Virus record (IMG/VR): IMGVR_UViG_3300007754_000002
Reading direction: 5' to 3' (one strand)
Length of the DNA: 36,718 nucleotides
Source: an uncultured virus (IMG/VR IMGVR_UViG_3300007754_000002)
Lineage: Duplodnaviria; Heunggongvirae; Uroviricota; Caudoviricetes
Shown piece after piece: positions 19,744 to 33,831 of the stretch (positions are counted from its first letter, which is position 1; each line of letters begins with the position of its first letter). Both the position numbers and the translations under genes were made by a program. The notes below the pieces were generated by a model that was not told the origin of the DNA, did not search any database, and saw only the letters and a program-made list of their open reading frames with translations.

Positions 19744-19746
19744 GAC

Positions 19747-20310: not shown

Positions 20311-20317
20311 AAGGATT

Positions 20318-20713
20318 TGGAGCCGGCGGGAGTCGAACCCGCGTCCAGCCCAGCGTTAGCTTCACAGCGTTCGTAGCCTTGGTCCATACTCAGAACCATC
20401 GTGTCCCTGGTTGCTTTTACCAGGAAGCCATCTCACTGATGATCCCCCCAGCGGGGAACCTCACCACGTCGCGGTCAGGAGCGACACCGCGATGCTGCCG
20501 GGCTGATTAAAAAGAACTGAGCGGCGACCCCAGCCGGAGGTCAGCTACCAGTCCCCAGGGCTCACGTAGTCCCCGGACTTCTGGGTGGCTAGGCCGCCGC
20601 CCGGAAGTTGTTGTTGTTGTTGGCAGTTATTACCAGTTGAGCCCGTAAGGGGGTGCTCATGTCCTGCTACGCCTGATTCACCTCAGCCGACCTGTCGAAA
20701 CCGGTGCGGCCCC
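20318..20713 (-). ncRNA. ssrA: tmRNA, tag peptide ANNNNNFRAAA (20624-20589)
   Basis: 5' GGGGCCG..GGTTTCGAC, 3' GGGTTCGACTCCCGCCGGCTCCA with G3-U70, resume context TAATAACT-GCC-AAC, tag ending AAA-stop. Confidence 0.95.
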
Positions 20714-20717
20714 ATAA

Positions 20718-20730
20718 TGTCAAAGAGTGC
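20718..20730 (-). promoter_or_regulatory. boxA-like antitermination site
   Basis: GCACTCTTTGACA just 5' of tmRNA; compare rrn boxA TGCTCTTTAACA. Confidence 0.55.
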
Positions 20731-20738
20731 TGCTCCTA

Positions 20739-20765
20739 TATACGAGGAGCGGGAGGGAGCTTGCC
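20739..20765 (-). promoter_or_regulatory. phage promoter-like motif upstream of tmRNA (GGCAAG-N15-CGTATA)
   Basis: Recurring motif 25 nt upstream of the tmRNA 5' end. Confidence 0.6.
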
Positions 20766-20786
20766 AGAAAACTATCGCAGGGGGGT

Positions 20787-20973
20787 GGTGATGGAGGTCG
20801 AACAGGACATAGGAATGCGTGTTCGGGGTCCCCGGTTGGGGTTGGGATCGTCTAACCTGCCGCCGAAGGTGTCTGACGGTGATCAGTTTAATTCCCGAAG
20901 GGTCCGGGGTAAACGCGCCGAGGTGCTAACCGGCCCCTCTCAGGGCAAATTGAGTAGGCCTACCTCCATCACC
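20787..20973. ncRNA. candidate ~187-nt structured RNA
   Basis: 12-bp closing stem GGTGATGGAGGT/ACCTCCATCACC with internal stems; intergenic. Confidence 0.4.
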
Positions 20974-21015
20974 CGGATCAAGTCTCATTAGCGAGACTCG
21001 ACCCGTAACCCTGCG

Positions 21016-21525
21016 TTAATTGAAGAGGTCCACGGAGACCTCCTCGATCTCCACTTCCGTCGCGTTGGCGACCTGGATGGCAGCACGGAGATCCGAGGCG
21101 TACCGGCCAGCCCGGCGAGCCGCCGCGGTGGCGGTCTCCTCCGAGACCTGACGGACGGCGACGATCTCGCCCTCCCGGCGAGTCATCTCCCGCCCGCTGT
21201 ACTTATCCCGGCCCGTGTCGGTCGCCGCGGATCGCCACATCTTCTCAGCCCGGCCCGCTCCAGAGACCTTCTTCACAGCCTCGCAGAGCGTCATCTCGAC
21301 TCCCTGGACATGCAGCGTCACCGCGAGGTTATACCTCGCCTGAGCGGTCTGGAGAGCCGCGATCTTGTTCTCGTAGGCCCGGAACCTCTCCATGAGAGCC
21401 TGGGGGGAGGTCCCTTCCTCGCCCGGGAAGGCGAAGAGGGAGTCCTTCCACTGCTTGTTGACGATCGCGAGAGCGTGTCCCCACTCTCTCACGGCGTGCT
21501 GGAGCTGATAGCCGGTGACCTTCAT
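21016..21525 (-). CDS. coiled-coil hypothetical protein
   Basis: 169 aa, AGGAG RBS. Confidence 0.75.
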   Translation of the reverse strand: MKVTGYQLQHAVREWGHALAIVNKQWKDSLFAFPGEEGTSPQALMERFRAYENKIAALQTAQARYNLAVTLHVQGVEMTLCEAVKKVSGAGRAEKMWRSAATDTGRDKYSGREMTRREGEIVAVRQVSEETATAAARRAGRYASDLRAAIQVANATEVEIEEVSVDLFN

Positions 21526-21581
21526 AATCTCTCCTGGTAGCCTCTATACCCGCCGCGGTATGTTTCTGGGGGAGGAGCACC

Positions 21582-21809
21582 TTGAAGCCCGAGCACTACC
21601 ACTGCCCGTTTGACTGCGAGCACCCCCAGCCGTTTACCTTGACCGGCTACTTGACCCTCCGGGCTATCAAGGTGGGATTTCGTCGAGGCAAACGCTACTG
21701 CGGGCGGTGCTGGCACAAATTCTCGGAAGTCGTGGAGGTCATTCTATGCACCCCCGAGACCTGCCCGGACGATGTGCTCCTTGATCCCGCTATAGCATCT
21801 CCGACATAG
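21582..21809 (+). CDS. small Cys/His-rich protein
   Basis: GGAGGAG RBS, CPFDCEH, CGRCWH, CTPETC. Confidence 0.55.
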   Translation: MKPEHYHCPFDCEHPQPFTLTGYLTLRAIKVGFRRGKRYCGRCWHKFSEVVEVILCTPETCPDDVLLDPAIASPT

Positions 21810-21866
21810 GATCCCCCCCCGGGTGATCAACGCCTGAAGAATCTTCTTGGCATAGGATTCCTGAGA

Positions 21867-22670
21867 TTATTGGGTGGTTCCGTAGGCACCTAGCAAGTGC
21901 CAGTGAACCCGAAAGCTCCCAGACCTGGAATCCCATTCGATGTAGTTCTGAGCCACCAGCCAGAGGAGGCGGGCCACGAGCATCACCGGGAGCATCTGAA
22001 AGCCTAGCCCGAACGCCGCAGCCACGGCTCCAACTGCACTCTCAGGGAGGGAGCCCAGCAGCTCCGAGAGAGAGATAGCTCCCGTGAACCCAGCGGCGAG
22101 GCCCCGGAAATCCCAGGAGATCTCAGCGACGTTGAACCAGATGAACGCGAAGATAGCGGCGTAGACCGGCCGCCGGAGAGTGGGGAGGTACTTCGCGAAG
22201 AGGCGATCGATGTAATCCACCCCGGGCTTCACCCGTGTCCTCAACACCTCCCCCACCCCGGTCTCCTTCATGATCCTCCCGATGAGGTCCGTGAGCGTAG
22301 GGAGGTTCGCCCTGGGGTGGAAAAAGATCCCTAGCGGAAACTCATGAGCCGCACGTCTGAGCACCTTTCCGAGGGCTTTCTTGCCCTCCTGAGCCCACTT
22401 TCGGATGTTCTCCGGGGTCAGCTCCCCGATCATGTCTTTGAGGCGACTCAGGAAGCGTGGCTGCTTCCGCAGCATCTTCAGGAAGCTCTTCAGCCTCCGA
22501 ACCATCGTGCCAAACCCTGCGGTGCGTTCAAAGAACGAGTCCGCGAGGGCTTCAAAGGTCTCTCTGTCGAGCTGGGATGCGAAACGCTGATTCCCAGGCG
22601 AGCCCCATGCCTCTCGGCAGGCTCGTCGAATCATGTGCCGGTGGGCTACTCGGGCAGGATCGGGTCGCAT
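21867..22670 (-). CDS. hypothetical membrane-associated protein with N-terminal RVAxR motif
   Basis: MRPDPARVAHRH; hydrophobic C-terminal helices; upstream TAA-N5-CTAT motif. Confidence 0.75.
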   Translation of the reverse strand: MRPDPARVAHRHMIRRACREAWGSPGNQRFASQLDRETFEALADSFFERTAGFGTMVRRLKSFLKMLRKQPRFLSRLKDMIGELTPENIRKWAQEGKKALGKVLRRAAHEFPLGIFFHPRANLPTLTDLIGRIMKETGVGEVLRTRVKPGVDYIDRLFAKYLPTLRRPVYAAIFAFIWFNVAEISWDFRGLAAGFTGAISLSELLGSLPESAVGAVAAAFGLGFQMLPVMLVARLLWLVAQNYIEWDSRSGSFRVHWHLLGAYGTTQ

Positions 22671-22739
22671 TCTGACCAGCCCGAGACATAGAAAGATTAG
22701 GGAGCCCGTTAGACAGCCTGAGAATCCGACAAGAGGCTT

Positions 22740-23030
22740 TTAGCTGGGCTCCCGGGGGTCCAGGGCTTCTACCCAGGCTTGAGCCTCTGAGAGGCTTCTG
22801 AAGGGCTCTGTACGCAGCTTGGGGAACCCCGCCATAAGCCGCCCATCTTCCCCGGTTTTGAAGACCCACCAGTTTCCGTCGTCGTGCTTTTCCAAAAAAG
22901 CACGCCCGTCTGATGGGTAACTGGACCAGTTACCCGTCCTCCAGGTGATTATGGAGCCACCAGCGGGATTTGAACCCGCGACCCCATCCTTACCAAGGAT
23001 GTGCTCTTCCCCTGAGCTATGGCGGCTCAT
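22740..23030 (-). CDS. possible hypothetical protein whose 5' part overlaps tRNA-Thr
   Basis: ATGA-coupled to the upstream stop; protein-like 3' part; true start uncertain. Confidence 0.4.
   Translation of the reverse strand: MSRHSSGEEHILGKDGVAGSNPAGGSIITWRTGNWSSYPSDGRAFLEKHDDGNWWVFKTGEDGRLMAGFPKLRTEPFRSLSEAQAWVEALDPREPS
22952..23026 (-). tRNA. tRNA-Thr(GGT)
   Basis: Cloverleaf, loop TT-GGT-AA, encoded CCA. Confidence 0.92.
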
Positions 23031-23338
23031 GACGGTGGTTCCTCCGGAAGAGCGACGCTCGTGTTCAACATAATAACACCAGCGTCAGCGTCAAAGACAG
23101 CGTGAAGGACATGCTCGTCCGTGTCGCTGTCCAACCCCTCTTCCTGAACCTTCGTTTTGATTTCCTTCGTTCGATAGAGGATCGCTTCCGGGTGCTTCTC
23201 TTCGTGGAAACGTAGCACATCCACGATGGCTTGATCCCACCCGGCTGTCTTCAAGAGGTGTTTTACGGCGTCCTCAAACCCCATGCCTACCGGAACGGGG
23301 ACGACGACCACCTTCGATTTCTGGTGCAAGATCGACAC
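23027..23338 (-). CDS. hypothetical protein
   Basis: 103 aa, GGAGG RBS. Confidence 0.65.
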   Translation of the reverse strand: MSILHQKSKVVVVPVPVGMGFEDAVKHLLKTAGWDQAIVDVLRFHEEKHPEAILYRTKEIKTKVQEEGLDSDTDEHVLHAVFDADAGVIMLNTSVALPEEPPS

Positions 23339-23396
23339 CTCCAGTCTGATCCGGGCTTCATTGAAGGCTTACCGGAATTGGACTGGAGTCTGAAAG

Positions 23397-23469
23397 AGCG
23401 GGCGACCGGGGTCGAACCGGCGACAATCGGCTTGGAAGGCCAATGCTCTACCAACTGAGCTACACCCGC
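23397..23469 (-). tRNA. tRNA-Gly(TCC)
   Basis: GCGGGTG/CGCCCGC, loop CT-TCC-AA. Confidence 0.92.
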
Positions 23470-24110
23470 GAATGTTTCGGAAGAGCCAACCGAAAGTTAG
23501 AACCCCATGTTTTGAGAGGAAAGACCACCAAGCTCGCCTCTCTTCCGAGGAGAGGCTGGAGGGGCCGACAGACCACAACGACTTCCTTCTCCGGCCAGAA
23601 GAACCCAAAGTCTGTGACTTGGAAACGAGACTGATAAGTCCTCCTGGCAGCAATCGAGCGAGGTGAGGGTCGGCTCGACCAAATAGAACCCACCAGAGGG
23701 TAATGGGGTTCCATCAGGGATGCCTCTGAAAGGTTCAGGTGAGCCAAATCCTGAGCCTCCTGAGGAGGCTCTTCGCCCGGAAGATACACCAACCCCATGA
23801 AGAAGACTCTCTCCTCGGGATTGCGACCCAGGGTAGTGACCCTGACCGGCTCTTCCGTATCGAGGAAGACTTCTGGGTGCTTGAATGTTCCGACCCATTC
23901 TGCGAGGCAAGAGTCGCAGATGACCATCTCCAAGGTAGCCATGTCTGGAGGGAACGAATCCCCATAGCCACCCGAGATATTGATGACGTGAAATCCAGGC
24001 GGGATGAATCCGTCGGTCGCCGCCTTCTCTGACCCGCACTTGTTACAGGAGGCCCCTTTGATAACAGGAACAGCCTCAAGACGCTGGCGGTACACGGTTT
24101 TGATCGGCAT
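23460..24110 (-). CDS. zinc-finger + DUF1653-like protein; stop codon inside tRNA-Gly
   Basis: CNKCG...CDSC; FQV...E.EVVVVCRPL...VFPL..W..NF. Confidence 0.65.
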   Translation of the reverse strand: MPIKTVYRQRLEAVPVIKGASCNKCGSEKAATDGFIPPGFHVINISGGYGDSFPPDMATLEMVICDSCLAEWVGTFKHPEVFLDTEEPVRVTTLGRNPEERVFFMGLVYLPGEEPPQEAQDLAHLNLSEASLMEPHYPLVGSIWSSRPSPRSIAARRTYQSRFQVTDFGFFWPEKEVVVVCRPLQPLLGREASLVVFPLKTWGSNFRLALPKHSRV

Positions 24111-24149
24111 GTCTTGTTATACCTGAAAGCCCTGTTCTCTGGGCTATAG

Positions 24150-24222
24150 CGGCGCCAGGGGGAATCGAACCCGCCTACCATCTCCTCGACAGGGAGAGCC
24201 CTCGCCATTCGGACTTGGCACC
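24150..24222 (-). tRNA. tRNA-Asp(GTC), atypical
   Basis: GGTGCCA/TGGCGCC, loop CT-GTC-GA; lacks U8 and has an irregular T stem. Confidence 0.65.
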
Positions 24223-24313
24223 TGGGGGGTCCACTACTTGATTACACGCCGCCGGCCCCCGGGCGTGGCTCCAGATTCTCTCGGCATCGGAACATCCACC
24301 GAGTCTCGCGAGA

Positions 24314-24391
24314 TGGTAGGGGTGAGAGGGCTCGAACCTCTAAACCTCCCGGGTCAGAGCCGGGCGTTCTACCAAATTGAACTACACCCCT
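24314..24391 (-). tRNA. tRNA-Gln(CTG)
   Basis: Cloverleaf, loop CT-CTG-AC, encoded CCA. Confidence 0.85.
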
Positions 24392-24396
24392 GAGTA

Positions 24397-24519
24397 GAGA
24401 GACAGCGATTCAGCCCGGCGACTACCGGCCCCACCTGTGTAGGAGCCACCTACACAGGTCAGGGCCAGCGTCTCTCCGAGCTTCCTCGCTGGACTGCGAA
24501 GCGGCTAACCTCGCCTCTC
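24397..24519 (-). ncRNA. candidate ~123-nt three-way-junction RNA
   Basis: Starts 7 nt after CGTATA (24527); terminal stem plus long hairpin ACCTGTGTAGG/CCTACACAGGT. Confidence 0.5.
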
Positions 24520-24550
24520 ATAAACGTATACGAGTGGGCCCTGATAATTC

Positions 24551-25108
24551 TCAGGGCCACGCTAAGATTTCTGGGCAGTGATCCCACTGGTCAAAGCCCA
24601 TGTCTCTCAGCATGAGCCTCACGTAAGTGGAGCCTATGCGGTCAAGGGAGACTGCGTCTACTCCTTGGCTCGCCTGAAATTGCCTCCAGGCGTACAGCAA
24701 CCGGACGAAGCTGCGGCAATCGGCCCCCCCAGGTTCTCGGGCTTCTGGGGGGAGATCTTGTTGGAATCTGCTGATGACCGCGGGGAGGTGGGGGCGGAGG
24801 TCGCCCATCCACAGCAGCTTGCGGTATCGGGCTTCGATGAAATGCCGATAGCCTCTCGGGTTCCCGGACATTTCGACCAGACATAGGATAGGGCCAATGT
24901 CTGTCTGGACGGCTCGCTGAAGGCTCACAGCAGCGTTCAGAGGCCACTCACTCCCAGCTTCCAGGGTCTCCCCTACCTGAAGGTCTCTGCCGTCAGAGAA
25001 CCTCATCTTGAGGTCCGCTGGGGCGACAAACCATCCTCGGACAGGGTCCGGGAGTGTCTGGTCACCTCCTTTCGGAGTGTAGTGCTGGTTCTGGAGCATA
25101 GGGGACAT
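24551..25108 (-). CDS. hypothetical protein
   Basis: 185-aa ORF between tRNA clusters. Confidence 0.65.
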   Translation of the reverse strand: MSPMLQNQHYTPKGGDQTLPDPVRGWFVAPADLKMRFSDGRDLQVGETLEAGSEWPLNAAVSLQRAVQTDIGPILCLVEMSGNPRGYRHFIEARYRKLLWMGDLRPHLPAVISRFQQDLPPEAREPGGADCRSFVRLLYAWRQFQASQGVDAVSLDRIGSTYVRLMLRDMGFDQWDHCPEILAWP

Positions 25109-25115
25109 TACCTAG

Positions 25116-25228
25116 AAACAGCGGAGGATTTGAACCTCATTTCCCCTGGATTCTCCCTCAAGGGTAGCAGGGAGGGGGAGCCGCTACCGGACTCCCCGAG
25201 GCGTCTTACCGGGTTGGACCACGCTGCT
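25116..25228 (-). ncRNA. tRNA-like RNA with anticodon arm replaced by two kissing-compatible hairpins
   Basis: Acceptor AGCAGCG/CGCTGTT, D-like arm, T-loop TTCAAAT; insert loops GGTAGC and GCTACC. Confidence 0.65.
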
Positions 25229-25232
25229 TCGA

Positions 25233-25306
25233 TCTGGGTGGAGGGATTTGAACCCCCGACCATCTGCTCCCAAAGCAGAAGCTCTTCCAGGCTGAGCTAC
25301 ACCCAG
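25233..25306 (-). tRNA. tRNA-Pro(TGG)
   Basis: Cloverleaf, loop TT-TGG-GA. Confidence 0.92.
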
Positions 25307-25331
25307 GTGATCCCCCGAAGGGGGGATGCTG

Positions 25332-25568
25332 TCAGAAGTTGACCTTGGTATCGGTCATCTCGACACCACGCCTCATGAGAACATGGAAGCTCTCATGGTC
25401 CGTGATGTTCAGCTCGAAAAATTCCTCTCCGGCGACCCGGAGAGACGCCTCGCCACAACACCCGCAGCCGTAGCCGTCAAGGGTGGCTCCGTACTCTCGA
25501 AACAACTTCTTCAGCTTGCTCAGGAATTCCTGAGCATTCGCGTTCTCACGCGACGTGTCAGCACTCAT
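25332..25568 (-). CDS. hypothetical protein
   Basis: GGAGG RBS before MSADTS; GCGCCG motif. Confidence 0.6.
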   Translation of the reverse strand: MSADTSRENANAQEFLSKLKKLFREYGATLDGYGCGCCGEASLRVAGEEFFELNITDHESFHVLMRRGVEMTDTKVNF

Positions 25569-25632
25569 GCTGCACCTCCTTCCGCGGAGGTAGATAGGAT
25601 CGACCCGTCCGAGGCGGGACGCAGTATTTTGT

Positions 25633-25705
25633 CGCATGGAGCAGGATTTGAACCTGCAACCTTCGGTGCCTAAAACCGACGCTCATCCAATTGAGCTGTC
25701 TATGC
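25633..25705 (-). tRNA. tRNA with TAG (Leu) anticodon on an Arg-like short-variable-arm body
   Basis: Loop TT-TAG-GC, 5-nt variable loop, G73, C8, one acceptor mismatch. Confidence 0.65.
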
Positions 25706-25735
25706 TTGTGTGCGTGCCCAGATGGGGCGGGTCAA

Positions 25736-25811
25736 TGGATGCGGAGGCGAGACTCGAACTCGCGTCGCCGGGGTATGAACCCGGGCTGGAACCCCTCCAG
25801 TCTACTCCGCA
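25736..25811 (-). tRNA. tRNA-Met(CAT), initiator-like
   Basis: GGG/CCC at the base of the anticodon stem, loop TT-CAT-AC, encoded CCA; unusual D arm. Confidence 0.75.
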
Positions 25812-25830
25812 GAAGGTTCCCCTGGTAAAG

Positions 25831-26076
25831 ATGGGGGTGCCCACTGATCCTGTCATCGACCTGTTGGTCGCGCGAGCTAAGCTAATACGCCGCCGCGAGG
25901 AACGTCTGACAGAACACTTAATCGATCTTCGATGCCGGGGGTTGACGCCAACAGATGTAGACTTGCTCTTGGAAGAGCTGGCGAATCAAGCCTGTGAAGA
26001 CAGGGCTTTTTTGTCCGAGCTAATCCGAGCTGTCCAGAAACAGCGTGCTCCTCGTCTCTGGTGGCGTCTCTGGTAA
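25831..26076 (+). CDS. hypothetical protein
   Basis: MGVPTDPVIDLLVARAKL..., helical, fills the gap between tRNAs. Confidence 0.5.
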   Translation: MGVPTDPVIDLLVARAKLIRRREERLTEHLIDLRCRGLTPTDVDLLLEELANQACEDRAFLSELIRAVQKQRAPRLWWRLW

Positions 26077-26106
26077 AGAGTGTTCGCGCCGACGACGCGA
26101 ACACAA

Positions 26107-26184
26107 TGGCGGGGTAGACGGGACTCGAACCCGCGAGCCTCCGGCGTGACAGGCCGGCGTTCTTGCCATCTGAACTACTACCCC
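26107..26184 (-). tRNA. tRNA-Asp(GTC)
   Basis: Cloverleaf, loop CT-GTC-AC, G73, CCA. Confidence 0.92.
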
Positions 26185-26498
26185 GTAGGTAGGCTCCAAC
26201 CAACAGACTGGAGCAACTCAGCGATCTTGTGGGGCCTCTCCAGGCACTCCGTCAACGCCTCGGGATCCCATTCCCGAGACTCAACCACGTACAACTCACC
26301 GAACAGCCCCCGGTACTTTCGCCGGTTCTTCCGGCACCAAGACGAGATGGATTCGGCTTCCCCGTGCTTATGCAGCACCACCCGTCCATCCAGAACGGAA
26401 AAGCAGAGACCCACGGAATCCGCCATCAGTTGCATCCGGCCGTTCTCGTAGAAGTAAAACGACCCGTGCTCTTTCCGGTATCTTCTCTTCCGCTTCAT
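26178..26498 (-). CDS. hypothetical protein; stop codon inside tRNA-Asp
   Basis: Start trimmed to MKRKRRYRKEHG. Confidence 0.6.
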   Translation of the reverse strand: MKRKRRYRKEHGSFYFYENGRMQLMADSVGLCFSVLDGRVVLHKHGEAESISSWCRKNRRKYRGLFGELYVVESREWDPEALTECLERPHKIAELLQSVGWSLPTG

Positions 26499-26530
26499 AC
26501 CCCGGATACCGCTGCTGCCCTCAGATAGGG

Positions 26531-27235
26531 CTACGGGAAGACCCCGATATCTTGAAGATGGGTGTAGACCCCCTTCAGAATGGTCTTCTTGGTCTTCGGT
26601 GTCAGGTAGGGCTCTATGTCCGACCACTTGGAGTCTGCTAGGGCGGAGTGGAGAGCCTGTCGAGGCTCCATCCCCATGTCCAGGTACTCCTGCACCTCAG
26701 ACTCAACTCCGGTCACCACGTCTCTCATGAGAGCTTTGACCTCAGCGGGGTGGTTGTGGTGCTTCCGCTTAAACTCCTCTCGGGTGCTGTCGAGAGCGTG
26801 GGCTCCGGAGCCCTTCCCGGACCAGATATCCGCAGCGTGGGTCAACTCATGAGCGAGGATTCGGTACAGCTCGTCTTCCGCGATGTGCCGGGGCCACCGA
26901 TCAAACGACTTGATGTGCGGGTTGACGAACACCATGAGGAGGGGTTCCTCACCAGGACGCTTCTTGAGAAAGCCCCCGTGAATCAATTCACGGTTGAAAG
27001 GATCTGACCGAGGAGACCCACCTACCCGGACCTCAACAACAACCTCTTCTCCCCGGACATTCGTGAGTGGGAACCACTCCTGAGCAATCACTCGTCCAGG
27101 CTTGGGGAGCCCCCAGGCACGAAGCCTCTGAGCCAGCTTCCGGGCGAGATCCGTCAGCTCCTTCGTAGGGAGGGCAATAGGTCGAGCTGCGGTGAGCCAT
27201 CGGTAGGCAACCCGAAGAGAGGAATCCACGATCAA
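26531..27235 (-). CDS. HExxH (zincin-like) protein with RVAYRWLTAARPI leader
   Basis: LAHELTHAAD ... HPAEVKA; paralog of 27232-28005. Confidence 0.75.
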   Translation of the reverse strand: MIVDSSLRVAYRWLTAARPIALPTKELTDLARKLAQRLRAWGLPKPGRVIAQEWFPLTNVRGEEVVVEVRVGGSPRSDPFNRELIHGGFLKKRPGEEPLLMVFVNPHIKSFDRWPRHIAEDELYRILAHELTHAADIWSGKGSGAHALDSTREEFKRKHHNHPAEVKALMRDVVTGVESEVQEYLDMGMEPRQALHSALADSKWSDIEPYLTPKTKKTILKGVYTHLQDIGVFP

Positions 27236-28005
27236 CCCACCAAGCCAGCGTCCTGAGTTGCGGTGTAGACCGCCTTCAGGATCCGGTTTCGGTTCTCGCG
27301 AGTCAAGTGCCGCTGGATTTTCTTCCAGGTGGGGCTCTTCCGCAGGCCCACCCGGATGCCCTCTTCCATGTTGGAGCGGTCGCGGAATCTCTGGACCCTC
27401 ACGGAAGGGATGACTTCCTCTACCACCTGCCTCATGAAGGCTCGGATTTCGTGGGGCTGGTTGATGTAAGCGGCGGCCCCATCCCGGGCATCAGCGGGGC
27501 TGTAGTCGTCCCTCATCCTCCCGACGAGATCTACCGCGTGGGTCACCTCGTGGAGGAGGACCGAGTAGATCTCTCTCTGGAGGAGCCCATTTTGATCCCG
27601 GTACTCAGACGCCGACAGGGCGGAGCTGGCTCGGATTTCCAGGGAGTGTTGAAAGCCACTGAACAGGTCGCTCTGGGAGACCAGACTTCCTCCCAGCAAG
27701 AGGGTCATGTTCCGGGGGGGCCTATTGAGGAACCGGACCTGAATCGGGACATGGAGGTCGCTGGGGACCAGCCCTTCGCCATCCCGAATCACCTGCGAGA
27801 GGGGGAATGAGCCTCCGTCGATCTGACGAGGGATCCTCTGCGAGGAGAGAGGCTCATCCGGATCGCCGCTTCGCGAGTTGATCGCGAGCATAATCCGGCG
27901 GGTGACTTCGGACGTCGCCTCGTTGATCGCCCTCTTGTCCAGCGGGATCGGACGTGCGGCGGTGAGCCACCGATAAGCTACGCGGAGGGGAGATGAAGTC
28001 GTCAT
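27232..28005 (-). CDS. HExxH (zincin-like) protein with RVAYRWLTAARPI leader
   Basis: LLHEVTHAVD ... YINQPHEIRA; start trimmed to MTTSSPLRVAYRW. Confidence 0.75.
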   Translation of the reverse strand: MTTSSPLRVAYRWLTAARPIPLDKRAINEATSEVTRRIMLAINSRSGDPDEPLSSQRIPRQIDGGSFPLSQVIRDGEGLVPSDLHVPIQVRFLNRPPRNMTLLLGGSLVSQSDLFSGFQHSLEIRASSALSASEYRDQNGLLQREIYSVLLHEVTHAVDLVGRMRDDYSPADARDGAAAYINQPHEIRAFMRQVVEEVIPSVRVQRFRDRSNMEEGIRVGLRKSPTWKKIQRHLTRENRNRILKAVYTATQDAGLVG

Positions 28006-28040
28006 ATCCGTCGCGAAGCATAGAGGGTTTAGTGAAGGAA

Positions 28041-28180
28041 TGCCTGTCCCGAGGTGGAGCACAGTGATTGCTCTTTCCCCCCGTAAGAGTGGAGGGGGTG
28101 GGAATCGAACCCACCTAGCGAGATGCTTCTCAACAGCAGTTGCTTCCTGGCTTGTGTGTGCATCCTGGTGGGGACAGGCA
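28041..28180 (-). ncRNA. circularly permuted tRNA-Ala-like RNA (YrlA / two-piece tmRNA topology)
   Basis: Ends pair (TGCCTGTCCC/GGGACAGGCA); order is T arm, acceptor 3' strand CCCCTCCA, linker, GGGGGGA, D arm. Confidence 0.65.
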
Positions 28181-28182
28181 AA

Positions 28183-28255
28183 TGGCTGCAACAGGAATCG
28201 AACCTGTGGCCTGGAGGATATGAGTCTCCTGCTCTTCCAACTGAGCTATACAGCC
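28183..28255 (-). tRNA. tRNA-Met or Ile2 (CAT)
   Basis: Cloverleaf, loop CT-CAT-AT. Confidence 0.85.
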
Positions 28256-28259
28256 TGAA

Positions 28260-28335
28260 TGGTGGGCGGTACAGGGCTCGAACCTGTGACCCTCAGCTTG
28301 TAAAACTGACGCTCTCCCAACTGAGCTAACCGCCC
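28260..28335 (-). tRNA. tRNA-Val(TAC)
   Basis: Cloverleaf, loop TT-TAC-AA, CCA. Confidence 0.92.
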
Positions 28336-28340
28336 TCCTA

Positions 28341-28413
28341 AGCGACAGACCGGGATTGAACCGGCGACCTTCAGCATGGCAAGCTGATGCTCTTCCAACT
28401 GAGCTACTGTCGC
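28341..28413 (-). tRNA. tRNA-Gly(GCC)
   Basis: GCGACAG/CTGTCGC, loop TT-GCC-AT. Confidence 0.9.
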
Positions 28414-28637
28414 GTGAGAGACTTCTGAAGCTGGAGACGGGCCTTCAGGTACGCCCTGGTGTCATCCGTGTGAGCGTCGGAGTGTTCACACGAGCGACAA
28501 CGGACCAGGAAGCCTTCCCGGCCAGCCTTCACTCCAGACTGAGACCCGCAGACCCAACAAGACCCGTAGCCGTTTCGCTCTCGCAAGAGACGGAGCCTCT
28601 TCTGGAGCTTGCGACGACGCTTTCCCTGGTCGGACAT
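28404..28637 (-). CDS. small zinc-ribbon protein; stop codon inside tRNA-Gly
   Basis: GAGG RBS, CWVCG...CRSC. Confidence 0.65.
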   Translation of the reverse strand: MSDQGKRRRKLQKRLRLLRERNGYGSCWVCGSQSGVKAGREGFLVRCRSCEHSDAHTDDTRAYLKARLQLQKSLTRQ

Positions 28638-28649
28638 GGCGGACCTCGA

Positions 28650-28725
28650 TGGCTCCGGGGGCGGGACTTGAACCCGCAACAACCTGATTAACAGTCAGGT
28701 GCTCTGCCAATTGAGCTACCCCGGA
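28650..28725 (-). tRNA. tRNA-Asn(GTT)
   Basis: Cloverleaf, loop CT-GTT-AA, GCCA end. Confidence 0.93.
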
Positions 28726-28757
28726 ATAGGGATGGAATCTACCGGATTCACCGCGAG

Positions 28758-28832
28758 GGTGTAGGACGGGACTTGAACCCGCTTCGTCCAGCTTCACAGG
28801 CTGGCCCCTCGACCACTTTGGGTTCCTACACC
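28758..28832 (-). tRNA. tRNA-His(GTG)
   Basis: G-1:C73 pair, loop CT-GTG-AA. Confidence 0.88.
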
Positions 28833-28840
28833 AGATCAAG

Positions 28841-28913
28841 AGACAGCGGTGGGAGTCGAACCCACTTTTACCCGATTTGCAATCGAGAGCCTTACCGTTC
28901 GCGCCTCGCTGTC
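28841..28913 (-). tRNA. tRNA-Cys(GCA)
   Basis: Loop TT-GCA-AA, U73. Confidence 0.85.
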
Positions 28914-28917
28914 TGAC

Positions 28918-28944
28918 TATACGACTCGCCCTTGGGAAATTGCC
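28918..28944 (-). promoter_or_regulatory. phage promoter-like motif (GGCAAT-N15-CGTATA)
   Basis: Recurring motif just upstream of tRNA-Cys. Confidence 0.55.
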
Positions 28945-28960
28945 GTTTTAGACGGTCAGC

Positions 28961-29207
28961 GGTGAGCGGCGGGGAACCGAACCCCGCATCTCCAGGGTAA
29001 AAACGCTGGCAAGCTGGTCCCTGGTGAGTTTCCATTGCTCCACAATCTCACGCCAACCGAATGGATACTTCCCCAAGACCTCCCGCCTCGATTTCCCGAA
29101 TCATTCGCTTGCCAGCGTCATCTCCCCAGAGGGAGAGCCTCCGAATTGATCCCCGGGAGGTCGGGTGCTTCGTTCTCTCGTGGTTTTAGTCCGGGCTTTC
29201 TCCCGGC
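28961..29207 (-). ncRNA. ~250-nt RNA with 3' tRNA-like domain (copy 1)
   Basis: Homologous to 30672-30921; enlarged anticodon loop GCTTGCCAGCGTT complementary to GACGCTGGCAAGC (29119-29107). Confidence 0.7.
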
Positions 29208-29210
29208 GAG

Positions 29211-29284
29211 TAGGGAGAGGGGGGCTTGAACCCCCGACCTATCGCTTATAAGACGAACGCTCTCACCAACTGAGCTATCTCCCC
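29211..29284 (-). tRNA. tRNA-Ile(TAT)
   Basis: Cloverleaf, loop CT-TAT-AA, A73. Confidence 0.88.
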
Positions 29285-30558
29285 TCAAGGTCTCCCAGGA
29301 CTTGAAACAGCTTCTCTGCGACGACCTTCGTGGTGTGAGGCTCCAGGGCGTAGCTGAACCGAATCCACCGGTCGGCGTACCTGCTGAAGAAGGACCCGGG
29401 GACGATCGCGATCCCGTGCTCCTCCGCCAGCCACAACCCCAGCTCGGCTGAAGTCTGGAAGTCTGCCTTGTCCAGACAATCGCCCACCTCAAGGAAGGCG
29501 TAGTAGCCCTGCCCCATGATGTGTTTGTGGCCTCGGGCGACCAGGAAATCCTTCAGGTATCTCCGGCTCTTGGAGATGGGCTCCAAGATACCTCGACAGG
29601 CCCGGTGATACCCCATCTGGTAAGCGGCCATAGCCACCGCCATTCCGTAGAAGCTTGGGATCACTCCGTGGGAAGCCCGACGCTTCGTGAAGCCCACCAC
29701 TTTCACCGAAGCGATCAGGTGAGCGTTCCTGATGTTGGAGCCTCCGAGGGACTTTGTCACTCCGTCGAGGATGATCAGCCGTTCTCTCTCGTCTGGGGGG
29801 AACATCGCGAAGAAGTCGTTCAGGTCGTAGGGCTCCTCGTCCGTCACGTAGTGGTAGATCCAGTCAAACAGGACGAAGGGGATGCCTTCTGCGATGGCGG
29901 CCTTTGCGATGGCAGCTTGATCGACCAGCGAGGTCACACGACCTGTAGGATTATCCGGGCTGGTTACCACCACCCCTGCGATTCGTCGCCCCTGGCTGGC
30001 TGCGAAGGCTGAGCACTCCCGGATACTGTCCGGGGTCAAGGCCCAGGCGTCCTTCTCTTCTCCAGGGGCCAGGAGAACGTTCGCTCCCATAAGGTAGGGG
30101 CCCCAATTGTAGGAGACCCAAGGTACACGAGGGAGGACGATGAGGTCTCCGGTTCTTCCGTGCCCCAGGTGGAGCATCGCCGCGTATGCCTTCAAGAGAG
30201 CATCTCGGCCCCCAAGGGCTGAGATAACGTTCTGAGGGCCGCCGTAGCGGGAATCCAGCTTCCAGTAGTCTTCGACGACTGACCGCCAGAATGCAGGGAC
30301 TCCGTGGGGCTTCCCGTATGCGGTCCCCCGGTCTCTCTGAAGCCGACAGGCGGCTTCCAGAATCTCGGGCGGGACACCGGGTAGGCTCGCTCCTCCGTCG
30401 CCCTGACAGGCATCGTAGAGCCGGGCTTCCGGGTGCTTCCGGTGGAAGCCCATGAGGGCTTCCCGGAGCCCGAACATCTGATTCTGGGGGATAGGGTGGA
30501 GGGTCTGGAGATCAGAGAGAGGGTGCTCTGTACCCTCAGGGACCACGATGGTCGGCAT
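29275..30558 (-). CDS. PLP-dependent aminotransferase class I/II; stop codon inside tRNA-Ile
   Basis: SPDNPTG, FDWIY, GVTKS, IVPGSFF, IRFSYA; AGGAGG RBS. Confidence 0.9.
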   Translation of the reverse strand: MPTIVVPEGTEHPLSDLQTLHPIPQNQMFGLREALMGFHRKHPEARLYDACQGDGGASLPGVPPEILEAACRLQRDRGTAYGKPHGVPAFWRSVVEDYWKLDSRYGGPQNVISALGGRDALLKAYAAMLHLGHGRTGDLIVLPRVPWVSYNWGPYLMGANVLLAPGEEKDAWALTPDSIRECSAFAASQGRRIAGVVVTSPDNPTGRVTSLVDQAAIAKAAIAEGIPFVLFDWIYHYVTDEEPYDLNDFFAMFPPDERERLIILDGVTKSLGGSNIRNAHLIASVKVVGFTKRRASHGVIPSFYGMAVAMAAYQMGYHRACRGILEPISKSRRYLKDFLVARGHKHIMGQGYYAFLEVGDCLDKADFQTSAELGLWLAEEHGIAIVPGSFFSRYADRWIRFSYALEPHTTKVVAEKLFQVLGDLEGR

Positions 30559-30671
30559 ACCGCCTCCTGTTGCTGTACTACCAGGGGAACAGGGGCTTTA
30601 CCGCTCGGTTTTTACCCTCTCCAGGAGGGCTTTAAAGGGTGCCGTTTTAGACTCTCCACGTCGCGTTGATT

Positions 30672-30921
30672 CGGCTCGGTCTGGGAGGAGTCGAACCCCC
30701 GCCCTCCGATTTTCCAAACGCTAGCAAGCTATCGGCGCTCTGCCCACTGAGCTACAGCCGAGCAGTCCCGCGGGCTTTGAGAATGGGCACTCCCTGGTTT
30801 CCGCGAAGCGTACTAAGGAATCGGTAGCTTGCTAGCGTCTTCCCGAAGGAAGACCCCTATTGAAACCCGGGGGCTCGGGCTGATCCGTTTCTTCTCCGTT
30901 TCTCCAGGGCAGGTCCCCGGC
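30672..30921 (-). ncRNA. ~250-nt RNA with 3' tRNA-like domain (copy 2)
   Basis: D arm GCTC/GAGC, T-loop TTCGACT, enlarged loop TAGCTTGCTAGCGTTT complementary to AGACGCTAGCAAGCTA (30840-30825). Confidence 0.7.
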
Positions 30922-30924
30922 GAG

Positions 30925-30998
30925 TCGGGATAGCAGGATTTGAACCTGCGACCTTCGGTCCCCCAGACCGACGCGCTTCCAGGCTGCGCTATATCCCG
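30925..30998 (-). tRNA. tRNA-Pro(GGG)
   Basis: CGGGATA/TATCCCG, loop CT-GGG-GG. Confidence 0.92.
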
Positions 30999-31101
30999 AA
31001 AACCAGCGGAACCACGCCGATCCCTCGGCGGGGCGGAGGCTAGCCACCTCCTCTCACGTCCTCACGACTTGCTGGTTAGCCGTTGAGCCAACAACTCAAC
31101 T

Positions 31102-31929
31102 CTAAAACTCGGCACGATGGGGATCAGCCCAATCGATCTTACCCTGGGCCATGTCCTTCACGGCGGAGGGGACCTGATGGGGCTCGATGACCGGCATGTC
31201 CCGTCGGGCAGGTGCCCAGGAGGGGACTGACTTGGTCACAAGATCCGCGTGCCCAGCCATTTTTTCGATTCCGGCCTCTTCCGAGCCGAAAACAGCGACC
31301 AGAGTGCTCTTCACATCCTCAGGGCTCCAGGGGAACTTTCCTGGAAGCCCGTTGACCGTGGCCTGCTCCAGAAGCGCCCGGACCTTCGGAGCTGTGTAGT
31401 CAGCGAGTGAGCCTTTCCCGGGCTTGCCGTTACGGACCCGGAATTTCCCCTTGGTGAGCAGGTTGAGAACCTGAACGAGCTTCGCTCCAGGCAGGGCGGC
31501 CTGATAACCGCCGACAGTACCGGCTGATCCCGTCGCAAGGATGGTAGCCGACCAACGGTGGTGACCATCCATAATGTGATTGTCCGAGGAAATCAGGGCT
31601 CCGAGGTCGCCGCCGACCTTGCCTGTCTTGAGCATGAAGAGAGCCATGCCGATGCTCTTCGCCAACACCATTGAGGTTTGGCTGGGCTTGAGCGAGGAGG
31701 CTGGGAACGAAGCTTTGCGGACAGGGATCTTGTCGTCCGACCGGTCGCCATCCTCAAGGCCTGATTGGACGATGATTTCAGCCAACGAAGGGTCGATCTG
31801 GCTGAGCTGGCCGGCTCGCTCCACCTGCTGCTTCACACGGCGTGCGTCTGCAAGTAGCGGCAGGAGCCCTGCCCGCAGTTCGGGATGGGCATGAGCCATG
31901 CGAATCACTCTCTTCCGCAGACTGGACAT
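31102..31929 (-). CDS. ParB/Srx-like domain protein with LRxxxIRxAHxxPELR leader
   Basis: LKPSQ ... ISSDNHIMDGHHRWSA; AAGGAGG RBS. Confidence 0.8.
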   Translation of the reverse strand: MSSLRKRVIRMAHAHPELRAGLLPLLADARRVKQQVERAGQLSQIDPSLAEIIVQSGLEDGDRSDDKIPVRKASFPASSLKPSQTSMVLAKSIGMALFMLKTGKVGGDLGALISSDNHIMDGHHRWSATILATGSAGTVGGYQAALPGAKLVQVLNLLTKGKFRVRNGKPGKGSLADYTAPKVRALLEQATVNGLPGKFPWSPEDVKSTLVAVFGSEEAGIEKMAGHADLVTKSVPSWAPARRDMPVIEPHQVPSAVKDMAQGKIDWADPHRAEF

Positions 31930-32169
31930 GACTTCAGCCTCCTTTTTTAAGAAAGAGGGATAGAAGCATTACCGGTGGCGTGAGGAAGAAGGAAGACCCA
32001 GGAAACTCGTGGTCTAAGCACGAGCCCTTCTCTATAGAAGGCTCTTGTTCCTCAAGGGCTCTGGGTTCAGCCCTATCTCCCGGGGACGAATCGGCGTCCC
32101 TACCCAGGTGCCGTCCTGGGCTTCAGCGACACCCACCTACTGACACGGCTTGTCGGTGGGCCGGAGAGA

Positions 32170-32242
<73 letters not shown>

Positions 32243-32244
32243 GT

Positions 32245-32495
32245 ATGCCCTGGAGGACCCCGGCCGGGGTCCTCCTAGCCTGAAGGAGGGCGAGGTACAC
32301 CCCCGCCTTAGCTTCGTTCCTCGCAAGGGCCCCTGCGATTCAACCTTCAGATCCAGTCGGGCGGTATCTGGAAATTCCCGCCACCGCCCACGGTCAGCAT
32401 CAGGTACTTCACGACCTCCCCGAAGGGAGACCCTCCCCAGGCTTACGCCTGGACGTTTTCATGGGCCACGAACCGCACCTGACTGTCATGGCGGG
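32245..32495 (-). ncRNA. candidate multi-domain structured RNA
   Basis: Nested stems, GTAA and TTCG tetraloops, 24-bp palindrome at 32252-32275; no credible ORF. Confidence 0.45.
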
Positions 32496-32498
32496 GAA

Positions 32499-32575
32499 TG
32501 GTTGGGGGAGCGGGAATTGAACCCGCCACCTCGGCCTTATCAGGACCGCGCTCTTACCATCTGAGCTATCCCCCA
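32499..32575 (-). tRNA. tRNA-Ile(GAT)
   Basis: Loop CT-GAT-AA, ACCA end. Confidence 0.92.
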
Positions 32576-32726
32576 ATAGGGTGAACCTGCCCCACGAGCC
32601 GTCAACAGCGGGATCCTTCGCCTCGGGCTTGCGGGCTTTACCGCCACTCCACCGCGGAGTTGAGCGACGACCAGGGAACCGGTCCTTATCCCTGTTGGAG
32701 CGGTCATGCGTGACACTCCGCTCCGA

Positions 32727-32801
32727 TGGTGGGTCTGGAGGGACTCGAACCCCCAACCTAGCGATTAAGAGTCGCTTGCTCTTCCATTGAGCCACAGACC
32801 C
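32727..32801 (-). tRNA. tRNA-Lys(CTT)
   Basis: Loop CT-CTT-AA, ACCA end. Confidence 0.92.
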
Positions 32802-32892
32802 AGGAAGGAGAGTGCCACCTATGTCACCACAGCGGCAGGCCGGGTAGCTCCCGTGTGACCCCGGGCTGGCCCCTTACAACCTTTCTCTCCTA

Positions 32893-33032
32893 TGGAGGCA
32901 GCGGTAGGAATCGAACCTACTTATGCTTGTGGGCTCTTCCGAGGATCCCCTGGGAGGGGGAGGAGATGGGGAGCCGGGAGGCGTTAACCTCCGGGTGATG
33001 ATCCCGGTGCTCATCCATTGAGCTTCACTGCC
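32893..33032 (-). ncRNA. giant-insert tRNA-like RNA A (loop ATCATCA)
   Basis: Acceptor GGCAGTG/CGCTGCC-T-CCA, D and T arms, ~70-nt insert ending CCCACAAGCATAA. Confidence 0.75.
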
Positions 33033-33035
33033 ATA

Positions 33036-33177
33036 TGGAGCCGTTGGTAGGAATCGAACCTACTAATTTGCTTGTGGGCTAGCTGGGAGGATCTCCCGAA
33101 GGAGAGGAGGCCAACAGCCGGAGGTCGCAAGACCTCCACCTTAAAAGGGTGGTGCTCAACCATTGAGCTTCAACGGC
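33036..33177 (-). ncRNA. giant-insert tRNA-like RNA B (Lys-type loop CT-TTT-AA)
   Basis: Acceptor GCCGTTG/CAACGGC-T-CCA, insert ending CCCACAAGCAAATTA. Confidence 0.75.
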
Positions 33178-33182
33178 AAATT

Positions 33183-33390
33183 TCGATAGAGTGTGCTGTT
33201 ACGCCAAAGACGGGGATCTAAGCCGGCAATTGCTTCCCCACGGTCCTACCGCTCCTATCCCCACGGGTAATCCCCTACACCCAAGACGCCACCTACCGGC
33301 GAGGTTTGTCGTTGGGATTCGGTCCTATGGTGGTCCCGTGGTTAAGCCACTCATCAAGGCTGGCTGCTTCTAAGCCCACCGCTCTATCGA
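33183..33390 (-). ncRNA. 23S rRNA H43/H44 (GTPase-associated centre) mimic RNA
   Basis: GGCTTAGAAGCAGCCA (33376-33361) and GCGTAACAGC (33204-33195) enclosed by the 9-bp stem TCGATAGAG/CTCTATCGA. Confidence 0.8.
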
Positions 33391-33393
33391 TGA

Positions 33394-33539
33394 CCGGGGA
33401 GGTAGGGATCGAACCTACACCTCTTATGCTTGTGGGATAATCGCGGGCCTCCTTGGAACAGGAGGGAGTGCGGTAGCCTGATCGCGGTTTTTCAACCTGG
33501 AATTAAGTTCCAGTGCTCTGCCAATTGAGCTACTCCCCG
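33394..33539 (-). ncRNA. giant-insert tRNA-like RNA C (loop ACTTAAT)
   Basis: Acceptor CGGGGAG/CTCCCCG, D and T arms, insert ending CCCACAAGCATAAG. Confidence 0.75.
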
Positions 33540-33543
33540 GTAA

Positions 33544-33618
33544 TGGTACACCCGGCAGGACTTGAACCTGCAACCTCTCGGTTCGTAGCCGAGAACTCTT
33601 CCATTGAGCTACGGGTGC
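33544..33618 (-). tRNA. tRNA-Arg(ACG)
   Basis: Loop CT-ACG-AA, ACCA end. Confidence 0.92.
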
Positions 33619-33713
33619 CCAGGATCAGAGGGCAGCTCCCGAAGGAGGCTGCACCTCGTCACCTTGCTGCCCTCGCTTGGGTGGCGAGGGCTCTTGTCGA
33701 ATTCATATTCAAG

Positions 33714-33726
33714 CTGTCAAAGACGG
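33714..33726 (-). promoter_or_regulatory. boxA-like antitermination site
   Basis: CCGTCTTTGACAG near the head of the RNA array; same TCTTTGACA core as upstream of tmRNA. Confidence 0.5.
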
Positions 33727-33759
33727 TCGCAAGACGTTGTACGACGAAGTCGCGACCAA

Positions 33760-33831
33760 TACACCCGGCAGGATTTGAACCTGCGACCCCAGCCTTCGGA
33801 GGGCTGTGCTCTTCCACTGAGCTACGAGTGT
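33760..33831 (-). tRNA. tRNA-Arg(CCG)
   Basis: Loop CT-CCG-AA. Confidence 0.9.

Follow-up and report, generated by a model that had tools for sequence, protein, structure and literature searches.

Two paralogous units with an enlarged anticodon-like loop complementary to an upstream leader in a viral tRNA array

Results

Two paralogous units lie within a viral tRNA array

The DNA considered here is a stretch of 36,718 nucleotides (nt) from an uncultured virus of the Caudoviricetes (IMG/VR record IMGVR_UViG_3300007754_000002), referred to below as the window. ARAGORN identified 22 transfer RNA (tRNA) genes and a transfer-messenger RNA (tmRNA) gene, every one on the minus strand and together spanning positions 18850-33831, while Rfam yielded five further tRNA-type matches. 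Within this array, which is counted as 26 tRNAs and the tmRNA, lie two paralogous units of ~270-285 nt, namely copy 1 (29210..28940) and copy 2 (30924..30640), each on the minus strand. The complete homologous units (28940..29210 and 30640..30924) were delimited by alignment. Searches with nhmmer and with R1, a covariance model of the 5' domain, revealed the presence of only two copies in the window, both on the same strand as the tRNA and tmRNA genes called by ARAGORN. An earlier reading of the sequence alone had drawn the units at 28961-29207 and 30672-30921. Those coordinates fall inside the homologous units, yet homology reaches further 3', to a common GTCTAAAACGGCA (28941-28953 and 30640-30652).

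Each unit directly follows a tRNA gene that does not encode its CCA, with tRNA-Ile(UAU) (29210..29284, minus; ARAGORN and Rfam) preceding copy 1 and tRNA-Pro(GGG) (30924..30998, minus; ARAGORN, and 66.3 bits in Rfam) preceding copy 2. The first bases of each unit read CUCGCCGGG, and in both, as had been remarked earlier, GCCGGG starts 3 nt (CTC) after the tRNA. The longer CTCGCCGGG is seen only in these two units. By contrast, the CTC junction, although present as described, is by itself no hallmark of the units, because the discriminator is followed by C and then T in seven of the 13 CCA-less tRNA-type genes of the array. CCA is encoded by the other half of the 26 tRNA-type genes (13 of 26), with T nearly always coming next. 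The recurrent C-T after the discriminator of CCA-less tRNAs across 18850-33831 may represent a common 3'-processing signal.

The same order of elements is seen in both units. The 5' part comprises a hairpin (H1), an A-rich linker, a second hairpin (H2), UCAAU and a third hairpin (H3) closed by a UUCG or UCUG loop. H1 is predicted as CCGGG/CCCGG in copy 1 (29191..29206, minus) and as CCGGGG/CCCUGG in copy 2 (30904..30920, minus), in the latter with a base-pair probability of 0.88 and no covariation. H2, found by RNAalifold at 29152..29165 (minus) in copy 1, lies at the same offset from the 5' end in copy 2 (30866..30879, minus; CCCG/CGGG), where it is invariant and hence uninformative. H3 is predicted as UCUCCC UCUG GGGAGA in copy 1 (29121..29136, minus) and as GUCUUCC UUCG GGAAGAC in copy 2 (30837..30854, minus), where its final 3 nt overlap the start of the element that follows, and one of its six aligned pairs is changed on both sides between the copies. 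There follow a segment termed here arm A, GACGCU(G/A)GCAAGC, a short gap, GAUUC and 82-91 nt that align poorly. The 3' part consists of a 5-base pair (bp) stem with a large loop containing arm A', GCUUGC(C/U)AGCGUU, a T-arm hairpin, an acceptor-like 3' strand and GUCUAAAACGGCA. In the 118 alignment columns of the 5' part, 72 are invariant, and the motifs earlier listed as shared are indeed present in both copies. The 3' motif GUCUAAAACGGCA occurs twice in the window, once after each copy (28941..28953 and 30640..30652, both minus), with six of 100 shuffles giving at least two matches. A six-frame check revealed no conserved reading frame in the units, the longest common peptide being 5 amino acids (aa). 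Strand and context suggest that the units are RNAs.

The leader and the enlarged loop are complementary in both copies

In copy 1, arm A (GACGCUGGCAAGC; 29107..29119, minus) is complementary over 13 bp, including one G-U pair, to arm A' (GCUUGCCAGCGUU; 29002..29014, minus), with a duplex energy of -24.1 kcal/mol. In copy 2, arm A (GACGCUAGCAAGC; 30827..30839, minus) pairs with arm A' (GCUUGCUAGCGUU; 30717..30729, minus) with a duplex energy of -25.0 kcal/mol, the pairing being extendable to 30842-30825 to give up to 16 bp, including one G-U pair and 14 contiguous Watson-Crick pairs. In each case, arm A' was placed within the enlarged loop, of 21-23 nt in copy 1 (RNAalifold) and of 20 nt in copy 2 (Rfam alignment, RNAalifold). 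These values bear out an earlier description of anticodon-like loops of some 20 nt paired over 13 and 16 bp with an upstream segment. The distance between the arms is 92 nt in one copy and 97 nt in the other. For each copy, the minimum-free-energy fold contains the helix formed by the two arms (A:A'), at a pair probability of 0.99.

The sole difference between the arms of the two copies is compensatory, with a G-C pair in copy 1 being replaced by an A-U pair at the same place in copy 2, just as had been claimed. Accordingly, RNAalifold scored 12 of the 13 A:A' pairs as unchanged and one as changed on both sides. Each arm is identical at 12 of 13 positions between the copies, as compared to 144 of 263 aligned columns elsewhere (~55%). 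When the sequences were shuffled with dinucleotide composition retained, an equally long Watson-Crick stem was obtained in three of 1000 shuffles for copy 1 and in one of 1000 for copy 2. With G-U pairs allowed, these numbers rose to 90 of 1000 and three of 1000, respectively. Because the copies are paralogues, conservation is a stronger argument here than are the shuffle statistics. Together, these results show that the A:A' complementarity is real, non-random and selected. Moreover, as the terminal G-U pair would be an A/C mismatch on the opposite strand, the complementarity fits an RNA helix formed on the tRNA strand.

The arm motif has four exact matches in the window, all within the units. 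Allowing one or two mismatches added two more, which is the level expected by chance, given that 24 of 100 shuffles gave at least six matches. Elsewhere, 19 of the 22 bases at 1700-1721 (minus), inside an open reading frame (ORF) at 708-2195, match copy 1 arm A and its 3' flank (BLAST E 0.087). This match is probably due to chance. As an antisense target, it would carry a central mismatch to both loops.

Copy 2 retains a recognizable tRNA-like tail and copy 1 a degenerate one

The 3' portion of copy 2 forms a tRNA-like module (30676..30760, minus) with a D arm, a T arm (GGGGG UUCGACU CCUCC, predicted at 30684..30700, minus) and a 9-bp acceptor-like helix containing one bulged A. Its anticodon-like arm (30706..30735, minus) was defined by the Rfam alignment as a 5-bp stem, CCGAU/AUCGG, with a 20-nt loop. 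The corresponding module of copy 1 (28959..29053, minus) is degenerate, with a 3-bp D stem, a T arm with the loop UUCGGUU (CGGGG UUCGGUU CCCCG, predicted at 28970..28986, minus) and an imperfect acceptor-like helix. Here, the anticodon-like arm (28992..29024, minus) is a 5-bp stem, CCAGG/CCUGG, with a 23-nt loop, although 6 bp and a 21-nt loop are possible.

When compared to the Rfam tRNA family (RF00005), the tail of copy 2 scored 38.1 bits against a cut-off of 29, with the 20-nt loop being taken as an insertion. By contrast, the tail of copy 1 gave no tRNA match at E values up to 10 and was called solely by ARAGORN in its relaxed intron mode, with two acceptor mismatches and the 3-bp D stem. 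The proposal that both units end in a tRNA-like domain was thus firmly borne out for copy 2 only, the tRNA likeness of copy 1 being weak. An anticodon loop of 7 nt is absent from both tails, as is a regular acceptor stem of 7 bp, given the bulge in copy 2 and the two mismatches in copy 1.

At the same time, the stem that closes around arm A' is retained, with three of its five pairs differing on both sides between the copies and pairing being kept. The T stem is likewise retained and shows one such double change. Given that copy 1 has lost most of the regularity of its D arm and acceptor while keeping arm A, arm A', the closing stem and the T hairpin, selection appears to act on these elements rather than on decoding.

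The units match no known RNA family and have no homologue in the collections searched

No Rfam family apart from tRNA gave a significant match, including when each unit was searched alone, and no ribozyme, intron, RNase P or riboswitch match was obtained at E values up to 10. The earlier statement that no recognized family has this layout therefore holds for Rfam. YrlA (RF02553) aligned to copy 2 with 15.9 bits (E 0.98; cut-off 69), and a Pfam scan of 26 window proteins revealed no TROVE-type (Ro60/Rsr) protein. Permuted tmRNA (RF04321) aligned to copy 1 with 10.2 bits (cut-off 47), covering the T arm only. ARAGORN and Rfam (standard tmRNA, RF00023) called a tmRNA only at 20317-20713, and neither unit was so called. 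A possible likeness of the 5' end to the CR-I region of RNase P was set aside, there being no RNase P match in Rfam. A miniature transposon or invertible segment was also rejected, since neither a target duplication nor an inversion joint was found. Indeed, a small transposon inserted into a tRNA is argued against by the inclusion of the 5' half of the tRNA within the repeats and by the lack of a flanking target duplication. In contigs from four public runs, no variant within the units and no inversion joint were seen, although contigs drop rare forms.

An Infernal search for homologues, proposed together with the sequence-only reading, identified none in 108 loci and six whole records. The former comprised 28 viral and 80 metagenome loci sharing a 275-aa neighbour protein with the window, and were scanned with R1. 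Nothing credible was obtained, the best match in the 80 metagenome loci having an E value of 0.23. A 21.5-bit match in locus L032 was rejected as it lies inside a reading frame and keeps none of the hairpins of the model. R1 likewise gave no match in five whole IMG/VR records or in a 485-kilobase (kb) phage record. When viral contigs were searched with patterns, arm A plus GATTC gave seven loci, all apparently chance matches in coding sequence and lacking the partner arm, while H2/UCAAU and the T arm plus GTCTAAAACGGC each gave no match. The two-arm pattern had no match in metagenome contigs and one in genome contigs, an unrelated Gordonia palindrome. A blastn search of 28600-31100 against GenBank phages returned tRNA matches only. 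Since the collections were searched without this phage itself being present, the absence of relatives says little.

The surrounding array and neighbouring genes

Six DNA runs of marine or seawater origin, belonging to two studies, contain the stretch, and relatives of the 275-aa neighbour protein sit on contigs of 250-340 kb. From this, the window appears to be part of a huge marine phage. The phage-borne tmRNA gene (20317-20713, minus), with a predicted tag of ANNNNNFRAAA (ARAGORN) and 79.4 bits in Rfam, points to a bacterial host. Genes encoding tRNAs were found near the 275-aa protein in three of 28 viral loci and in three of the 60 metagenome loci scanned for them, 20 of the 80 having been left out, such that related phages rarely carry tRNAs at the corresponding place.

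A Pfam family was found for six of the 26 window proteins scanned, with most reading frames between the tRNAs having no known family, and a PHROG for eight of 37, the function nearly always being unknown. A class I/II aminotransferase gene (29275-30558, minus) lies between the two units, its final 10 bases overlapping tRNA-Ile(UAU). The product, an ordinary enzyme of bacterial type, is ~57% identical to proteins from bacterial metagenome-assembled genomes labelled Aminicenantes, Thermoanaerobaculales and Anaerolineales. No viral relatives of this protein were found, and the gene looks like a host-derived metabolic gene. A 319-aa neighbour also gave no viral relatives, apart from one weak match in GenBank phages, and a search for phage relatives of a 623-aa frame found none. 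Further away, the minus strand (13787-15280 and 15861-17999) encodes a protein fusing NADAR and ADP-ribosylglycohydrolase domains and, after it, an ATPase of the histidine-kinase type and two proteins with receiver domains.

Other unusual tRNA-like sequences were also noted on the minus strand of the array. In three tRNA-type genes (33394-33539, 33039-33177 and 32896-33032), an insertion of ~65-70 nt separates the anticodon stem from the T stem. These genes scored 45.4, 54.0 and 39.7 bits in Rfam, respectively, and none was called by ARAGORN in default mode. All three insertions end in CCCACAAGCA, and CCA is encoded in two of the three genes, the sequences of the anticodon loops being CUUUUAA, ACUUAAU and AUCAUCA. 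A pattern describing their common 3' part had no match in viral contigs. Just after tRNA-Met, a lone T-arm hairpin, GTGGG TTCGATT CCCAC (28098-28114, within 28090-28182), is seen without any recognizable acceptor or D arm, in a region that overlaps the start of an ORF at 27232-28191. Finally, inter-tRNA spacers of 200-250 nt (32243-32498 and 33178-33393) contain many GC hairpins with UUCG loops, such as GGGUCUCCCUUCGGGGAGG near 32416-32436. These two spacers match no Rfam family and may hold further structured RNAs.

Discussion

A tentative view of the units

The best explanation for these observations, although one held tentatively, is that the units are non-decoding structured RNAs derived from tRNA, in which the anticodon loop is locked to the 5' domain by a selected leader-to-loop pseudoknot and which, after processing by tRNA enzymes, serve as scaffold or mimic. 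In such a scheme, the units would be co-transcribed with the phage tRNA array and excised from it by host tRNA-processing enzymes. Each would be built of a ~90-nt 5' domain of three small hairpins with A-rich linkers, followed by the 13-nt arm A, a variable ~90 nt that would include the 5' half of the former tRNA, and then the tRNA 3' half, with the former anticodon loop carrying, as arm A', an insertion of 13-16 nt that would pair with arm A. In place of the anticodon loop, there would thus be a rigid helix anchored to the 5' domain. Relative to both the anticodon-like stem and the acceptor-like helix, this helix would form a pseudoknot, and the molecule would accordingly be unable to decode. 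The tRNA-like tail would probably act as a handle for processing and stability, involving RNase P and 3' trimming, and may also mimic tRNA toward some tRNA-binding host or phage factor.

Several findings weigh against this view. The evidence comes from two copies in one genome, copy 1 does not match the tRNA model, and the long helix offers a single compensatory event between paralogues that are not independent. H1 and H2 are unvarying between the copies, and other pairing combinations are possible in this region. Homologues were not found in the viral, metagenome or genome collections searched, and no RNA run is listed among the seven public runs. The return from the 13-bp helix to the closing stem would have to be made in just 5-6 nt. 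Forced cloverleaves lacking A:A' are 15-16 kcal/mol worse than nested folds containing it, such that the long helix may form in place of the tRNA shape rather than alongside it. With the arms masked, energy minimization recovered no cloverleaf in either copy, and the folding energy of copy 2 as a whole is unexceptional (z -1.33, with 22 of 200 shuffles folding as well).

Since arm A lies outside the closing stem and the acceptor-like helix and arm A' lies inside, a pseudoknot results if all of these form together. The conserved long-range pseudoknot proposed in the sequence-only reading therefore stands insofar as the helix is conserved and carries a compensatory change, whereas the pseudoknot topology holds only if both helices form at once. 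Whether taken as a pseudoknot or as a tethered module, that interpretation is reasonable, with its support coming from two paralogues.

Alternative explanations

One possibility, considered unlikely, is that A:A' and the tRNA-like fold exclude each other, as in a switch, or that A:A' is a processing stem of the RNase III type, in either case governing cleavage of the transcript or maturation of the tail. The energetic advantage of 15-16 kcal/mol for A:A' over forced cloverleaves and the tight return loop of 5-6 nt, which speaks against easy coexistence of the helices, are as would be expected of a switch. Furthermore, in copy 2, the outer three pairs of the helix compete with H3 and the inner two with the closing stem. 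Also in copy 2, GCCCGCGGGACUGC, lying upstream of the tRNA module within 30741-30775 (minus), can pair over 13 positions with the 5' acceptor/D-arm region of the module, and this alternative helix reached a probability of 0.89-0.98 in nested folding. At the same place, however, copy 1 presents a different long hairpin, and alternative helices other than A:A' are not conserved between the copies. In addition, a helix of 13-16 bp is short for RNase III, and no common downstream gene that might be governed follows the units, with the aminotransferase gene lying downstream of copy 2 and tRNA-Cys downstream of copy 1. It is likewise improbable that the units have no RNA function at all but are decaying duplicated tRNA pseudogenes together with spacer, in which the inverted repeat is kept either by DNA-level processes, such as template switching or gene conversion between the arms, or as a DNA site for recombination or protein binding. 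The eroded tRNA features of copy 1, the other odd tRNA-like pieces in the array, the lack of homologues in the collections searched and the absence of RNA runs among the seven public runs would all agree with decay, and correction of quasi-palindromes can create apparent compensatory changes. Decay does not, however, predict arms that are far more conserved than their surroundings in both copies, nor the maintenance of the closing stem around A' by double changes, and a separation of 92 and 97 nt is far for template-switch correction. No inversion joint or unit variant was present in the contigs of the four public runs, and the arm motif does not recur as a DNA site elsewhere in the window beyond chance.

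Should the units instead be precursors of real tRNAs, arm A in the leader would mark a mini-insertion in the anticodon loop for removal, whether by an endonuclease together with an RNA ligase or by ribozyme activity of the 5' domain, so as to yield normal 7-nt loops. ARAGORN in intron mode indeed reads copy 2, the body of which exceeds the Rfam tRNA cut-off, as a tRNA interrupted at 31/32 by 13 nt, AGCUUGCUAGCGU, and copy 1 as one interrupted at 30/31 by 16 nt. The insertion called is, in each case, the leader-complementary strand. The bases left upon its removal, UUGGAAA in copy 2 and UUUUUAC in copy 1, contain U33 and A37 like a true anticodon loop. Still, a U at the second and a purine at the sixth of the last seven loop bases is estimated to occur in about one in eight random loops, or about one in 64 for both copies. 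The insertion is not at the canonical 37/38 position, a bulge-helix-bulge was not seen by eye, and 13-16 nt is far below the size of a group I intron, with no intron or ribozyme family being matched. Both acceptor helices are irregular (two mismatches or a bulge), copy 1 fails the tRNA model, and no ligase or endonuclease was found among the window proteins scanned (26 against Pfam, 37 against PHROGs). Moreover, bacterial seryl-tRNA synthetase makes use of a long variable arm, yet the product would have a class I body with the anticodon GGA and no such arm. On balance, this origin is decidedly unlikely. More improbable still is a new, guide-directed form of tRNA maturation, in which the leader would serve as a guide that pairs with the 13-16-nt insertion and directs its excision and the resealing of the tRNA by a nuclease and ligase of host or phage or by a leader ribozyme. 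The products would be tRNAs with normal loops and the anticodons GGA and UUU, and the intron would be of a type that is neither group I nor bulge-helix-bulge. Last, the 5' domain could act as a ribozyme that, by cleaving itself, releases the CCA-less tRNA upstream at its 3' end, in the manner proposed for theta ribozymes. Each unit begins 3 nt past such a tRNA, and passages of PMC10879173 place theta ribozymes within 5 nt of phage tRNA ends. Nonetheless, no ribozyme family was matched at E values up to 10, with the units also being searched singly, and inspection by eye, the RNArobo descriptor not being applied, revealed no P3/L3 hairpin before the partner strand of P1. As a ribozyme would, in addition, leave the tRNA-like tail and the A:A' helix unexplained, this scenario is considered highly improbable.

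Implications

That stable RNAs of unknown role can lie hidden in the tRNA clusters of phages has been recognized since T4, and the purpose of the dozens of tRNAs carried by huge phages is debated, with codon supply, recoding and escape from host anticodon nucleases having been considered. If correct, the view of the units as non-decoding RNAs would mean that a tRNA has been turned into a scaffold with an anticodon loop locked by its leader, and so would represent a new viral reuse of the tRNA shape. Such a scaffold could be used as a processing handle, as a decoy that draws off tRNA-binding enzymes of defence or modification, or as a gated antisense loop. If the insertion is instead removed, the units would point to a route of tRNA splicing so far unknown in the bacterial world. 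In either case, the units offer a compact pseudoknot candidate with a built-in compensatory pair.

Comparison with known systems

A leader paired to an enlarged anticodon loop was not found described in the open-access papers and preprints searched, although individual features of the units are seen in other RNAs. As in tRNA (RF00005), the tail of copy 2 has D, anticodon-like and T arms and scores above the family cut-off and, as in intron-bearing tRNA genes, the extra bases of the units lie in the anticodon loop, where introns occur. At the same time, and unlike in either, the loops are of 20 and 21-23 nt, with the insertion at the 5' edge of the loop and having no intron core. Unlike in intron-bearing tRNAs, moreover, the partner strand of the insertion lies in the 5' leader, outside the tRNA. 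A group I intron was rejected, as no intron model was matched at E values up to 10 and the insertion is of 13-16 nt, as compared to roughly at least 200 nt. An intron of the archaeal/eukaryal type was rejected because ARAGORN places the insertion at 31/32 and 30/31, rather than at 37/38. A bulge-helix-bulge motif was looked for in the units by eye only, and none was seen. In the split and permuted tRNA genes of Nanoarchaeum and Cyanidioschyzon, a leader or trailer segment pairs beside the anticodon region in a helix of 12-14 bp. That helix joins two halves and presents a bulge-helix-bulge to the archaeal/eukaryal splicing endonuclease. In the units, by contrast, both halves are contiguous and no bulge-helix-bulge was seen by eye.

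Like tmRNA and YrlA, the units would be non-coding RNAs in which a tRNA-like module is fused to another structured domain, and tmRNA also contains pseudoknots. Unlike in the units, the tRNA-like part of tmRNA is built from its two ends and lacks an anticodon arm. A further comparison is with the hepatitis delta virus (HDV)-like theta ribozymes of gut phages, described in passages of PMC10879173 as lying within 5 nt of phage tRNA ends and proposed to cleave the 3' trailer. By that measure of distance, as worded in those passages, the units likewise adjoin the 3' end of a phage tRNA, beginning 3 nt past the discriminator. Theta ribozymes are, however, minimal HDV-like folds, whereas the units are far longer, possess a tRNA-like tail and match no ribozyme family. 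As to a nested double-pseudoknot fold of the HDV type, with a catalytic C in J4/2, the units matched no HDV-type family, and inspection by eye, rather than with the published RNArobo descriptor, revealed no P3/L3.

In position, the units resemble RNA C and RNA D of phage T4, which a passage of PMC3014915 describes as stable RNAs with unknown roles, their genes coming immediately behind that of a tRNA within the tRNA cluster of T4. According to the annotation of NC_000866, these too are non-tRNA elements directly following a tRNA in a phage tRNA cluster. The two ends of T4 RNA C pair in a closing helix, and its 3' end is formed by GGUUCGAAUCC, a T arm of the tRNA type. At 139 and 119 nt, as compared to ~250-285 nt, RNA C and RNA D are, nonetheless, shorter, the predicted fold of RNA C lacks an enlarged anticodon-type loop paired with a leader, and R1 gave no match on the T4 RNA C/RNA D locus, where the predicted folds also differ from those of the units. 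Of the systems compared, T4 RNA C and RNA D are the closest in kind to the units described here.

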